Source: Eledone cirrhosa
Taxonomy: Eukaryota
Assembly (NCBI GenBank): GCA_964016885.1
Contig: OZ024745.1
Location: 123,008,001-123,072,000 of the forward strand
Direction: 5' to 3'
DNA length: 64,000 nucleotides
The position numbers and the translations under genes are program-made. The notes beneath the pieces were generated by a model. It was not told the origin of the DNA. It saw only the letters and a program-made list of their open reading frames with translations, and did not search any database. Below are positions 2,035 to 64,000 of the stretch, one piece after another (the stretch's first letter is position 1; each line of letters starts with the position of its first letter).

Positions 2035-2218
2035 GCATCCCGGGTTCAATCAGGGGTAACCACAGTAAGGTACTCAATACATAGCAAGGTATAAATGTTT
2101 AATATATAAATGGCTTCTACAGGACTAGAACTGTTTCATTCGAAGGAAATCATCAGGAAGGCCCTGATGATTTCCTTCGAATGAAACAGTTCTAGTCCTG
2201 TAGAAGCCATTTATATAT
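2035..2218 (-). mobile_element. Hammerhead-bearing fold-back element, family HH1 subfamily A (Penelope/retrozyme-like, non-autonomous)
   Basis: Perfect 56-bp inverted repeat (2102-2157 / 2163-2218, 5-nt loop) containing CTGATGA-TTTCCTTCGAAT-GAAACAG..CTGTA. The unique tail 2035-2101 is shared with copies at 20.6, 22.3 and 57.7 kb. Flanked by (TG)n and (TA)n. Confidence 0.8.
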
Positions 2219-5923: not shown

Positions 5924-6197
5924 TTCTTATAAAGGCACAAGGCCAGCAATTTTGGGGGAGGCGGAAGTCGATTAAATTGACCTCAGTACATTACTGGTAC
6001 TTTATTTTATCGACCCCGTAAGGATGAAAAGCAAAGTTAACTTTGATGGGATTATGATCTGAGTTCAAATCCCGCCAAGGTCAACTTTGCCTTTCATCCT
6101 TACGGGGTTGATAAAATAAAGTACCAGTAATGTACTGGCGTGGATTTAATCGACTTTATCCTCCCCTCAAATTACTGGCCTTGTGCCTTTATAAGAA
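5924..6197. mobile_element. Head-to-head inverted pair of S1 SINE bodies
   Basis: 5924-6053 is the reverse complement of about 6068-6197 (TTCTTATAAAGGCACAAGGCCAG...CTGGCCTTGTGCCTTTATAAGAA). Confidence 0.85.
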
Positions 6198-20520: not shown

Positions 20521-20562
<42 letters not shown>

Positions 20563-20569
<7 letters not shown>

Positions 20570-20751
20570 TGAGATTCTACAGGACTAGAACTGTTTCATT
20601 CTTTAGAAATCATCAGAGATTCCTGATGATTTCTAAAGAATGAAACAGTTCTAGTCCTGTAGAATCTCATCTATATTAAAACTTTTATACTCTGCAATGT
20701 ATTGAGTAACTTACTTACTGTGGTTACCTCCGATTCAACCCAGAATAACGT
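20563..20751 (+). mobile_element. Hammerhead-bearing fold-back element HH1 subfamily B
   Basis: Perfect 54-bp inverted repeat (20563-20616 / 20623-20676) plus a unique tail to 20751, embedded in (TA)n. Confidence 0.8.
20616..20668 (+). ncRNA. Type I hammerhead ribozyme motif
   Basis: GAGAUUC-CUGAUGA-U-UUC-UAAA-GAA-U-GAAA-CAG-UUCUAGUC-CUG-UA^GAAUCUC. Stem I 7 bp, stem III 4 bp, GUA triplet, predicted cleavage after 20661. The stem II base pair is U.U rather than G-C. Confidence 0.75.
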
Positions 20752-20875
20752 ATATATATATATCATCATCATCATCACCGTTTTACGTCCGTTCTTCCAC
20801 GCTAGCATGGGTTAGACGGGTTGTCCTGTTGTGTGCAGTGTCTGGTCGGCTGACCATGCCTTGCTCATACAGGAA

Positions 20876-22274: not shown

Positions 22275-22450
22275 TATGGAAATGGCTTCTATGGGACTAG
22301 AACTGTTTTATTTGAAGGAAACCATCAGGATTTCCATTGAAACAGTTCTAGTCCTGTAGAAGCCATTTCTATATTAAATATTGTATATACTCTACTATGT
22401 ATCGAGTACCTTACTTACTGTGGTTACCCCTGATTGAACACCTAGGATAC
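22275..22450 (+). mobile_element. HH1 subfamily A copy with central deletion
   Basis: Arms AATGGCTTCTA..GACTAGAACTGTTT / GAAACAGTTCTAGTCCTGTAGAAGCCATT and the same tail (GAGTACCTTACTTACTGTGGTTACCCC). Confidence 0.75.
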
Positions 22451-47006: not shown

Positions 47007-47053
47007 ACTGTACTGATGAAGGGTAATCACCCAGAAACATTAGTGTCTGCAGT
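47007..47053 (+). ncRNA. Type I hammerhead ribozyme motif (family HH6)
   Basis: ACUGUA-CUGAUGA-A-GGGU-AAUC-ACCC-A-GAAA-CAUUAGU-GUC^UGCAGU. Stem I 6 bp (one G.U), stem II 4 bp, near-palindromic stem III, GUC triplet. Confidence 0.7.
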
Positions 47054-54922: not shown

Positions 54923-55317
54923 TTTTAATAAATATTTGCTCTACGGTTCTTATATATTTAATATATATTTATCCTTATCGAACCCTCTTTGGATTTTAGT
55001 CTTCACATTTATTATTATTACTACACACACACACATATATGTATATATGTATATATGTATGTGTGTGTGTGTGTGTATGCCAGTCACTATAAATCTCATA
55101 CCAACACTGCATAATGCCTGTGGTGACCATTGTTGAAATAATATGTACTAGAGTGTAGCATTGCAGCACACATCAGCAGCATATCATATTTAGAATAAGG
55201 AATAGGTTGTTTTCAAAATGGTCATGAGGCAGGAGAAAGTCTGTCACAAATAATCTAGTCTAATCCATGGAGGAATAGAAACGTTGCTTGTAGAGGGTAG
55301 GGCTTGGTAGGAAAAAA

Positions 55318-55401
55318 TGGAGATTCTTCTTCCTTCCTGGTAGCTGTTTATTTTATTTTATCTAAAATAAAATGAACGACTACCAGGAAGAAAAATCTCC
55401 A
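55318..55401. repeat. Imperfect hairpin / inverted repeat
   Basis: TGGAGATT..CTTCCTGGTAG..GTTTATTTTATTTTA / TAAAATAAAATGAAC..CTACCAGGAAG..AATCTCCA. Confidence 0.75.
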
Positions 55402-56589
55402 ATTTCCACCCCTTGATAATGGCTGATTAATTTGAAAAGTTTGGGGAATATTAAATTGCTATGGTAACTTTCTGTCATTCTTTCTTTTGTTTTCTCTCTC
55501 AGTTCCCTTCTGACTTATTACCTTAGCAATCTAACCCACTAGCATTGTATGGCTTTCTAAACAAACAAATGGACTTTTCAAATATATTGTGTATATATAT
55601 ATATATAATAGTAAAAAAAAAAAAACACTAGAAAATGGTATTTTGTTATTTCCATTATTTTTCCTTTTTTACTATTTTATCTATTTTATATATCAACTTG
55701 TGTATCATTTCTCCCCCCCCCCCTCTCTCTATATCTATATATATATGTTTATATATTATTATTATAGTAGAAACAATTATTATTATACATTTACACACAC
55801 ACACACACAAACATACACATAGATATATTCATATATATATATACATATACTAACATAACATGGATGATTGTGTTAGTGTGTACATGCAAGAGTGAGAGAC
55901 TTTGAGGGATAAGGGATAAGGGAATAATAGAAATATACATATTCTAGAGGAAGACATGTTATTGATAAAGATTGAAAAAGGGATGAAAGTGGAATAGGAA
56001 GAAAAAGGCAATGGTTGAAATGGAAGAGATAAAGGGAAAGAAATGAGTGTGATGAGTAGGGAATATTAGTTCGTAGACAAAAGTAATGTTAACGCAATGC
56101 AAGTCACAGGAAATATACAATAATTATTATTATATTTCTGTAATAAAAGTTTCAGAAAACCTGTTTCTTTCAAAGCTCTATATTGCAGTAGAATACATAA
56201 TGGTAATGGTTATAAATGATGCAATAGACATGGAAGATATTCAATGCACACTGTATGCTGTGTGCTCTGTGCAGTGTTGTACAAGCATGCAATGTAATGC
56301 AATGGTGGCTGCAATGGTACAATGCATAAATAACTACACAGTTTTACAATTTATATATAATATAATCATCAAAAGAAAAAAAAAAAAGACAATATTACAA
56401 TTCCTTTTCTATTATTTTTTCTTGTTTTTTTTTTGTAATTGTTCTTTTCCCCTCCCTCAGTTTTTGTTTTACTTCACCACAAACCCACCTCATTCTACTC
56501 TTACCATACTAGAATTTTAAAACTAAAGTAGATTAAAAAAAAAACACCAATCTGATGACAGAACATTACAAAAGAATTATGATTGTATA

Positions 56590-57699: not shown

Positions 57700-57894
57700 T
57701 ACGTTATTCCGGGTTTAATCGGAGGTAACCACAGTAAGTAAGGTACTCAATACATTGCAGAGTATAAAAGTTTTAATATAGATGAGATTCTACAGGACTA
57801 GAACTGTTTTATTCTTTAGAAATCATCAGGATTCCTGATGATTTCTAAAGAATGAAACAGTTCTAGTTCTGTAGAATCTCATCTATATTAAAAC

Positions 57895-57895
<1 letters not shown>
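57700..57895 (-). mobile_element. HH1 subfamily B fold-back element
   Basis: About 63-bp arms 57769-57831 / 57833-57895 with two mismatches. Plus-strand hammerhead motif at 57830-57878 (GAUUC/GAAUC stem I). Embedded in (TA)n. Confidence 0.8.
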
Positions 57896-58172: not shown

Positions 58173-59439
58173 AAGAGAGAGAGAGAGATGGATATATAGA
58201 TATACAGGCATATATATATATAGTTATATATAGATATACATGCATATATACATAAATATATGTGTGAGTGTGTGTGTGTGTTTACATCTTGAAACAACTG
58301 GTGATGAATAAATGAAATGTTACTTATAAGTGCTATATACTATCATCAGCGTCATCTTCATTTAATGTCCAGTTTTCCTGCTACCAATGTCGAGGTGGGT
58401 TGTCAAGCCTGCTTAGTTGGTACTCAAAGTTGAGGTACTGACTTCACAGCATGCCAGGATCCTCCATCCCACATATGGTTCTACACCTCACCGAATCATT
58501 TTAACTTGACACAAGCACTAAGGATGCTGTTATGTCCTTATATGTATCTTTCATTGTTGTAGTATTAAGGTGGCAACATGTCTCTGGTAGAATTTTTCAT
58601 TGTGTCACTATTATCTAACTTATTGTGATTACTCTGAGGAATAATTTATTGATTACACTCTCATTGAGTGCTTTGTAACAGCCTTCGAAAATCGATTGTG
58701 AACCTGCTACCTGCTACTTGCAGCTGCAACTTCCGTTACACTCATTATTATTTTATATATACTGTATATATACATACATATATATATATATATATATGTG
58801 TATATATATATATATGTATATATATATATGAAACAAACCAGGATTTTTTCGTTCTGAGGATTGAAAGCAAAACCTTTTGCTTTTAAGAAACCACTGGTAA
58901 ATGGAATAATTGCCTTATGTTGTTTATTACATAATAATAATATATATATATATATATAGACAGATATGTATATTTATAGATAGATAGATATGTAAATATA
59001 TATATATATATAATTACGTGTTTGAAATAATTTGTGAAGGTCATCTTATGTAATTAATTAAGAAAAAGGTGGACAAAGACAACAGAAAAAGAGACAAAAC
59101 ACAAAACAGTCCTGTCTCATAAGTTGACCTATATATACAGAGTGTCCCAACAAAAAATGTACACACACTTTGATTAGAATGCTGTTGAAGCGTGTATACA
59201 TTTTTTTTTTGGGGGGGGGGGGGGGGAGCACTATGCAGTTTGAGTAGGATACCATAGCAACAAGATATCTGTGTTAATTTTTCTCTAAAGTACAATTGTT
59301 TTACACAGTATCAATGGCTTACATAGTGGTGAAAGTTCTTATAAGATGTTATACAAACATTTTTTAAGTATAAATTCTAGACATGTGTACTAATTCAGTA
59401 AGTATATATGTTGATATATGTCTATGTGTATATATATAC

Positions 59440-62586: not shown

Positions 62587-64000
62587 TGATAATAATAGTA
62601 ATAATAATAATAATAATAATGCTTTCTTTATTAACCACAAGGGTTGACACAAAGTATAACATTAAGGACAACACAGGACAATACAAATGGGCATTTCCGC
62701 ATGTAAAATAAAAAAAAACAGTGTGACAAAAGGAAACAATGAAAAATTCCCAATAGTGGGGAGACCTCTGAGGGTTGCTCGTGGAGAAAGCCCACTAGAA
62801 AAGCCCCGGTTACCCTGACCGCTAGGGCAAATGCCCTCTTCCAGTTTTCCTCCTACAATGCTACAAGCACACGCTCAGGGTAGACCCATTCACACAAGCC
62901 ATTCTTGCCTCTCTCACCCACCTTTCAACAAACTGGCTGGAGGTCAGCACTTCCCTCTCCACCCTGATTTTCCTCTTCAGGTGAAACCTGAAAAAGTTAA
63001 TGAGGGCGTCACTGAAGAGGAAAGTACCGGTCATCAACCCTTTCAGACGTGTCCACCATACAATCTCTTTTACCATGGCCACCAGGCAGATAAAAACTGC
63101 CTGCCCTTCTCGGCTAAAGGAGGGCGGCGAGGCTATCTTCACAATGGACTCAGCCGATAGCCGGATCCGTTCTACCTGTGACAGCAGGTGTTCGGCATAA
63201 ACCCACAAGTCAGCAATGCTCGGACACTGGACGAGTGCATGCAGGACGGTTTCATCGCCCTGTGCATATCTCTGACAGGCTTGGCTGACGGCACTTCAGT
63301 GCCTGTAGAGTTTATCCCGAACTGGCAAAGCTCCTCGGTAGCACTGCCAGGCCAGGGATTTCTGGAAGTTGTACATGGGCCCCGGCCTGAAAGTTCTCCC
63401 GAAGATATTGGCTAGTTGGTTTTTGTCGATGCCTATAGTCTCCACAAGGACGTTGTTGTTCTTTCCTTCCACTAATCCTCTATAGAAAGCCAAGGTGGAG
63501 TTTCCAGCGATTGTATTGCTCGACTGGTCGAGGGCTGTAAGCGCCTGAAGACATTCTAGTCTCCAAGCGCTTCCTCTCTGTCTTCGCTTGATGCAGGACT
63601 GCAGCTCCGCCAAGGAGACAAGCTGGGGAAACATGTGTCTAGCAAAGGACGACCACACCTGATCATCGTCCAGGAAGAGGTGGAGATGCCGTAGCCTGAG
63701 CGCATGTCTGCGCATCAGCAGCCACGGCATGCTCAGCCCTCTGCCTGACCATCAGAGCATGTCCCTTCCACAAAAAGCGAAAGAGCAAACGCTCCAATGC
63801 AGTCAGGCGAGGCTTAGGACAAGGCACGACGGTCAGGCGGTAGTAGATGACGGACGCGATGTATGCATTCACCATCTCCGCTAGACCTTTCAGGGATAGC
63901 TTCCTCTCGGTCCATTTCTGGGTGAGAGAAAACACCTTGCTCATGACCTCCCGGTTTTTGTCCGTCTGGAGGTTTGGACCAAACCAGACCCCTAGCAATT
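62587..64000 (-). mobile_element. L1/Tx1-clade LINE, 3' part of ORF2 (RT end, zf-RVT-like region), 3' UTR and (TTA)n tail, frameshifted and running off the window end
   Basis: LGVWFG..W..RKLSLKG....N.YIAS.IYY.L..LFRFLWKG, then W.CYRGALPVRDKL, and terminal NGSTLSVCL* at 62861, in three broken ORFs. AATAAA precedes the (TTA)n tail. GC content is much higher than the flanks. Confidence 0.9.

Follow-up and report, generated by a model that had tools for sequence, protein, structure and literature searches.

The short hairpin repeats found in the 64-kb window, the whole stretch of Eledone cirrhosa DNA analysed here, come from one end of an autonomous Penelope-like element (PLE) that is Hydra-type by its motifs rather than by an RT tree. 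The centre of the hairpins likely marks the start of a capped RNA and not the predicted cut site of the hammerhead ribozyme that the repeats carry. The explanation that best accounts for the hairpins, and the one we consider probably correct, is twin priming on one capped, uncleaved RNA of this autonomous Hydra-type PLE followed by end joining. The element is a new family in a known clade and its class, ribozyme, tail, inversion and target are all already known. It is neither a retrozyme nor the separate non-autonomous family that an earlier, sequence-only reading of the window had proposed.

Four related copies lie at 2035-2218, 20563-20751, 22275-22450 and 57700-57895 of the window, all present where the sequence-only reading had placed them and with the arms and tails that it described. 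The 2035, 20563 and 57700 copies are near-perfect palindromes (54/54, 54/54 and 60/62 matching bases between arms, respectively) with a tail on one side, and the palindrome centre of the window copies is the 5' strand of hammerhead stem I, the first base of which we number +1. The further statement that all copies lie in TA-rich sequence needs amending, as both subfamily A tail ends adjoin (CA)n. In the 20563 copy, the inverted tailless arm occupies 20563..20616 on the reverse strand, covers +7 to +60 with 54/54 complementarity to 20623-20676, and ends at +60, one of two common inner 3' ends. The forward-strand junction G at 20616 corresponds to -1, where the element has C, so it is not templated; it forms a 1-nt overlap common to the inverted arm too and we infer that it is a copied cap. 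The type I hammerhead follows at 20617..20667 on the forward strand, identified from a pattern scan, pair counts and the dimer fold, and is succeeded on the same strand by the remainder of the 5' UTR, the tail, at 20668..20752. The inner (+60/+67) and outer (+136) end sites both lie in the tail, which in full elements runs on into the ORF. The (TA)n target flanks this copy at 20524..20562 on the left and about 20752-20764 on the right, and within these flanks a target-site duplication is not readable.

The remaining window copies vary on this layout. The 2035 copy, of subfamily A, has a reverse-strand tail-bearing arm at 2035..2163 that reaches +1 with an extra G at -1 (2164), a tail end adjoining (CA)n, and a forward-strand inverted tailless arm at 2164..2218 with 54/54 complementarity. 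Both this copy and the 20563 copy fit twin priming or single-strand snap-back equally well. The 22275 copy (22275..22450, forward strand) is an older member of subfamily A with a diverged inverted arm at 22275-22330 and a tail arm starting near +13; it has lost its centre to a deletion or else had a second cDNA that was shorter. In the 57700 copy, of subfamily B, the reverse-strand tail-bearing arm (57700..57831) reaches only +5 and the forward-strand tailless arm (57830..57895) reaches +2. Here the tailless arm extends beyond the 5' limit of the tail arm, an arrangement that a tail cDNA folding back on itself cannot yield. The ribozyme core is not common to all copies as had been claimed, given that GAAA is mutated to AAAA in the 57700 tail arm and that neither arm of the 22275 copy has an intact core. 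An assembly artefact is ruled out as the source of the palindromes by their fixed asymmetric ends and diverged arms. Other features of the window include two hammerhead-like cores at 47007-47053 and 58847-58906, unrelated in sequence to the Penelope hairpin family, the latter between (TA)n tracts. A 130-bp hairpin of another repeat with 88% complementarity lies at 5924-6197, an AT-rich centre within an imperfect hairpin at 55314-55405, and LINE-type ORF fragments, by eye like the frame in locus L032, at 62861-63751.

The parent element is identified by loci L035 and L243, in which the same ribozyme and tail lead straight into an RT and GIY-YIG frame. The Penelope link suggested earlier is right, and copies attached to such an ORF do exist. 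L243 represents a whole unit, which starts within a few bases of +1, bears a 758-codon open frame, and continues through a microsatellite-rich 3' part of about 3 kb into a second promoter and ribozyme, ending at +67. At about 6.0 kb, compared with the usual under 3 kb in the Hydra clade, its size exceeds 3 kb because of the microsatellite-rich 3' region, the ribozyme and ORF together accounting for about 2.3 kb. All 150 of the 150 scored RT-region matches are at least 93% identical, about 20 of them in 758-codon frames, which indicates that the family is young and agrees with the recent mobility already proposed for it. The predicted protein structure (pLDDT 93.5) has telomerase RT as its top six fold matches, the best being TERT with an E-value of 1.7e-9; PLEs are the closest retroelement relatives of telomerase. 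Sequence searches of the element protein against Pfam and PDB gave no RT match. A nuclease motif IVY...YIG...R...E...N is recognisable by eye at the C-terminus, and PF01541 (GIY-YIG) scores above cut-off in two of the four homologues scanned but not in the query itself. Of the motifs of the clade, the change of DKG to DKT is present (SDKTK in the element protein). In place of the N-terminal RWK motif the family has RWR, and ten aligned homologues have RWK (eight) or RWR (two). In L243 a CxCX5C linker (CNCLNKEAC) and CDLC and CMH around the nuclease E and N are seen by eye, with no CCHH. The pLTR with hammerhead, the inverted truncated copy and the one-sided tail are all present in the octopus element. 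Insertion into (TA)n likewise holds, as the arm ends bear out, and subfamily A tails often adjoin (CA)n.

Exact-pattern counts for subfamily B across the 3.0-Gb genome, with reversed-pattern controls at 0, indicate how abundant these fragments are. There are 7,515 exact ribozyme arms (44-mers) against 0 for the reversed control, a number far beyond chance, together with 8,312 exact tails, 1,805 fold-back junctions with a centre of up to 30 nt, and 2,471 arms still joined to the upstream TATA box. Short copies without that TATA box are likely dead on arrival and would not propagate. Junction centres differ from copy to copy, although some recur, and loop-free or 1-nt-loop centres exist. This variation, along with the same subfamily loop in both arms, upholds the idea that the fold-back forms anew at each insertion, and differs from the identical centre of an ordinary MITE. 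Contigs from sequencing runs say no more than that copies are numerous and that the hairpin centre is spanned by some of these contigs. The position-ordered samples described below cover the first 63-73 Mb of one contig (C1) and needed exact seeds. Two further arrangements were observed. At L034:3788-6866, a second PLE ORF of the same type, rich in asparagine, lies in inverted fragments beside a subfamily B copy. At G000:C1:83679811-83691745 (L240, L241), an ORF copy is followed by a head-to-tail series of twelve units, each about 1.08 kb long and comprising the 3' region, promoter, ribozyme and a tail that adjoins (TA)n of the element itself. This array looks like self-insertion followed by tandem amplification, and is a possible route from a PLE to a retrozyme-like array.

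The pattern scan places the hammerhead on the tail-bearing strand, with a 6-bp stem I (20617-20622/20662-20667), CUGAUGA at 20623-20629, a 3-bp stem II closed by U.U, GAAA, a 4-bp stem III with CUAG in its loop, and GUA. The predicted cut after 20661, equivalent to +45/46 of the element, and the type I assignment agree with the sequence-only reading. The conserved core and three helices of a type I hammerhead are present and the expected G10.1-C11.1 pair is replaced by U.U at the base of stem II, a feature that recurs in many of the Hydra ribozymes reported in PMC8557442. Stem I of subfamily B, first read as a 7-bp GAGAUUC/GAAUCUC helix, is really the 6-bp AGAUUC/GAAUCU, since the element has C rather than G at that position. 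The differences in stem I and loop II between subfamilies stand, but the GG(C)CUUC form attributed to subfamily A is normally GGCUUUC or GGCUUC, with GGCCUUC a variant of the 2035 copy. Among 12 aligned variants, 99.3% of stem cells are paired, loop II varies freely and covariation amounts to two of the six stem I pairs (A-U to C-G/U-G and A-U to G-C). Stems II and III never vary in this alignment and so contribute no covariation support. The compensatory changes reported earlier are consequently real for stem I, although they represent few events among related sequences, and do not extend to the other stems. At the Rfam gathering score, the 190-base unit matched no hammerhead, neither the anticipated Hammerhead_1 nor its best match, Hammerhead_3 (16 bits, E 0.51). 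In the scan of the window, a hammerhead is absent from the best 150 of 265 matches, nearly all of which are microsatellite-driven miRNA noise.

Folding predictions give the monomer hammerhead a probability of 0.001. Cofolding favours an intermolecular stem I/III dimer (-21.2 versus 2 x -7.6 kcal/mol), with the stem II register shifted, in line with the minimal PLE ribozymes described in PMC4209133. Conservation of the ribozyme with compensatory changes suggests that it is likely selected in the parent element, where it is likely functional, probably as a dimer. The best reading of the integrated copies is that they derive from uncut RNA, and what makes the ribozyme edge important is likely the start of the RNA at that point rather than catalysis. 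The hairpin formed with the antisense arm has a predicted energy of -101 kcal/mol, and the antisense arm would be predicted to sequester the ribozyme provided that read-through transcription occurs.

In each of six loci measured, drawn from both subfamilies, a TATA box, TATAAATA, begins 29-33 nt above +1, the usual distance from TATA box to transcription start. In promoter-linked subfamily A rows, scored by eye, -1 is a pyrimidine in 22/22 and G in 0/22. Among 61 TA-joined subfamily A loci, also by eye, G is the commonest base at -1 (32), followed by T (14), A (10) and C (5). The G-led loci fall outside a CAG context in 24 of 32 cases; CAG at the other eight, which are single arms, may reflect short snap-back synthesis. 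For subfamily B, G occupies -1 in 33 of 77 loci by eye, and the +1 base of these G-led loci is non-A in 13/33 by eye and in 5/25 of a scripted subset, which could come from miscopying of a modified nucleotide next to the cap or from terminal-transferase noise. In L1, capped full-length insertions are distinguished by an extra G (PMC11702581). Given the TATA spacing and the untemplated extra G, comparable with that of L1, we infer that +1 is a capped RNA start. The extra G could instead arise from terminal-transferase C addition or, in subfamily B, have stem I snap-back as its source. Related elements from metagenomes hint at a common layout (77 loci with 57 hammerhead-like motifs in 45, 51 with enough upstream sequence, in 32 clusters). 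In 10 of the 32 clusters, TATAWA occurs 35-46 nt above the core, compared with 0-4 in four other 12-nt bins, this bin having been fixed after the listing was viewed and 22/32 clusters being without TATAWA there. The TATA box of the relatives is about 5 nt further from the core than in the octopus element. A splice-acceptor origin of the edge, suggested in subfamily B by a pyrimidine tract together with a CAG at +2, was rejected because arms keep +1/+2, no constant upstream exon is seen and subfamily A is without AG. Elsewhere, at G000:C1:372643457-372643526, a subfamily A copy has telomere-like TTAGGG repeats attached at the 5' edge of its ribozyme.

The 5' ends of arms accumulate at +1..+10. 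In 100 consecutive tail-anchored copies, 42 of the 5' ends fall at -3..+10, 15 at +11..+40, 4 at +41..+50 and 8 beyond +50, with 4 at -84..-4 and 27 past -85. This cluster is sharply bounded on its upstream side, and the cut site, +45/46, shows no excess of ends. Fold-back exactly at the ribozyme edge, as described previously, thus holds as a cluster within about 10 nt, but about a quarter of copies run on upstream. Arms joined to (TA)n end at +1/+2 rather than at the cut site in 273 versus 22 raw matches, or 106 versus 6 on the reverse strand with overlapping duplicates excluded. The 5'-end mapping and these counts together rule out a cut-site origin of the centre. At the opposite end, the 3' ends of 100 consecutive arms in C1 comprise 52 at +60..+69, 41 at +131..+138, 2 running into the ORF and 5 elsewhere. 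Single arms flanked by (TA)n (n=25) use the inner site in 12 cases and the outer site in 13, which argues that each site primes on its own; full-length L243 likewise ends at +67. The arm 3' ends show 1-4 nt of TA overlap. Small predicted hairpins after +67 and +136 are no better than shuffles (z -1.25 and 0.08), and the subfamily A stretch at the small-hairpin site does not fold. Those at window 20687-20707 and in L243 past +136 share an AC-UCU...GU look.

Our results suggest a molecular model for how the hairpins form. An adjacent inverted arm is present in 57 of 100 tail-anchored copies, of which 50 have a longer arm ending at -3..+10. The arm reaching further 5' is the tailless one in 34 hairpins and the tail arm in 18, with 5 equal, and in 31 hairpins the tailless arm extends to +3 or further. 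Microhomology enters these figures for each of the two arms, so that reach is blurred by 1-3 nt. As the tailless arm often extends further 5', a cDNA folding back on itself cannot give this pattern. In L122, L145, L123 and L185, the end of the tail arm roughly coincides with the beginning of the inner arm, which is the geometry of L1 twin priming. Loop II is the same in both arms in 32/32 readable hairpins (0.44 expected; subfamily A 6 of 8), a concordance that could instead reflect gene conversion or separate periods of activity of the subfamilies. In the twin-priming model, the enzyme would nick both strands of the (TA)n target and one capped, uncut RNA would be copied from two internal start sites up to its 5' end. 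Priming at the 5' copy of the tail would generate stumps of 60-136 nt; long copies, whether truncated or full-length, would come from priming at the 3' copy. Displacement of the inner cDNA by the outer polymerase would duplicate the ribozyme, and the two cDNA 3' ends would then be joined head to head through 0-3 nt of microhomology, in some cases once snap-back synthesis has added a few bases. Snap-back probably contributes to the hairpins.

Alternatively, a single tail-primed cDNA may reach the RNA 5' end, snap back, copy the ribozyme region as DNA and jump to (TA)n at +60/+67 by microhomology. For R2, snap-back following full-length cDNA synthesis is reported in PMC11371274. The single-cDNA route would be consistent with the 20563 and 2035 centres, which fit a snap-back of 1-2 nt, the CAG remnants in 8/61 single arms, the 32/32 arm concordance, the TA microhomology at +60/+67 ends and the longer tail arm in 18/57 hairpins. 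However, the tailless arm is longer in 34/57 and at +3 or further in 31/57, loop-free or 1-nt-loop centres exist, and +60/+67 are used alone in single-arm and full-length copies. Single-cDNA fold-back is accordingly unlikely as the general mechanism and likely explains a minority of hairpins. A related proposal, in which the centre is not a start at all, is that cDNA on a long read-through RNA halts or snaps back once both strands of stem I have been copied. RNAs spanning +1 do exist, as seen in 27/100 copies, and some junctions, such as those in L006, L025 and L091, carry bases templated from the stem I 3' strand. Nevertheless, we find a structural stop improbable, given that snap-back in subfamily A would place T at -1 where G is commonest (32/61), that the non-A +1 base in 13/33 G-led subfamily B copies, scored by eye, is unlike correct stem I pairing, and that the TATA spacing is constant.

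Two further explanations appear very improbable. Self-priming on an antisense RNA template has been proposed for head-to-head Penelope palindromes of the same geometry in Adineta (PMC3846280), but the TATA spacing on the sense strand, and the extra G at the 5' edge of that strand, indicate a template that is sense and capped, and antisense priming does not predict two fixed 3' sites that are each used alone. The notion of a self-propagating non-autonomous family, whether retrozyme or MITE, moving as a 190-bp hairpin unit draws on the thousands of short non-coding copies, the recurrence of some centres and the existence of a 12-unit tandem derivative elsewhere in the genome. It is largely refuted by centres and arm lengths that vary from copy to copy, by a continuum extending up to full ORF copies with short copies lacking the TATA box, and by a one-sided tail that leaves no terminal inverted repeats at both ends. 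In addition, the units are not tandem, the window copies being single head-to-head insertions.

Comparison with described systems places the octopus element closest to the Hydra-clade EN+ PLEs (PMC8557442). That account describes a single RT and GIY-YIG ORF of about 710 aa with DKT, RW[K/R], CxCX5C, CxxC and CxH motifs, as well as (TA)n targets, a hammerhead often with U.U, an inverted truncated copy and a one-sided tail. The octopus ribozyme nonetheless differs in sequence from all Hydra hammerheads listed there, including that of the cephalopod Hydra-1_Obim, and has a stem II of only 3 bp and a loop III of 8 nt. The unit of about 6 kb, owing to its 3-kb microsatellite 3' region, and the tail of about 70 nt rather than 30-40 also set the octopus element apart, and hairpins centred on the RNA start are not described in the sections of PMC8557442 compared here. 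Poseidon_Ac (PAc), as reported in PMC11167929, extends both target strands in vitro from an uncleaved RNA template, with two internal RT starts that define the tail. The two start sites, use of both strands, uncut RNA and a predicted protein dimer would be common to both elements under the twin-priming model, although PAc belongs to another clade, and inverted copies, cDNA joining and the cap are not modelled in the portion of that study considered. Initiation by PAc is reported to involve no homology, unlike the 1-4 nt of TA overlap at octopus ends. LINE-1 twin priming (PMC11702581) is similar in that a second primer on the same RNA yields a 5' inversion, with an extra G and microhomology joining. 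LINE-1 inversions overlap by a few bases at most and arise from random internal priming as described there, whereas the octopus element has a fixed second site and usually duplicates the copied region.

Minimal PLE hammerheads and retrozymes (PMC4209133, bioRxiv 10.64898/2026.07.22.740005) share with the octopus element type I ribozymes in pLTRs, mostly in solo truncated copies, and a palindromic loop III and dimer design; some of those described occur as opposite-strand pairs 100-700 bp apart. Non-LTR retrozymes form tandem head-to-tail units that, in the accounts consulted, are thought to pass through circles, in contrast to the octopus copies, which are head-to-head with no excess of ends at the cut site. 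The Penelope palindromes of Adineta vaga (PMC3846280) resemble the octopus hairpins in being head-to-head at the inverted junction with an optional tail, but differ in the antisense-template self-priming proposed for them, in their few copies and in having no link to an RNA start within the account considered. The freely accessible literature searched describes neither a cap- or start-site-centred PLE hairpin nor a cap-like G at such junctions.

The origin of PLE palindromes and the role of the hammerhead are stated as open questions in PMC8557442, PMC3846280 and PMC11167929. The nucleotide-level footprints of this family weigh for twin priming on an RNA that is sense, capped and uncut, and against antisense self-priming. 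With junctions centred on the start site and a G resembling a copied cap, the mechanism of PLE inversion becomes directly testable. The family itself supplies intact ORFs and a 136-nt cis template for an in vitro test. A tentative extension, which we put forward as a possibility against which the balance currently lies, is that transcripts of Hydra-clade PLEs start at the ribozyme, in which case its cleavage would strip the cap from the PLE mRNA. A dimer-dependent hammerhead at +1 would then constitute a copy-number-sensitive off switch and not a step in RNA processing, and a dimeric RT would twin-prime the capped RNA that survives. If this were true, the roughly 1,800 hairpins in the genome would represent an in vivo record of the whole cycle, including copied caps and a miscopied cap-adjacent base.
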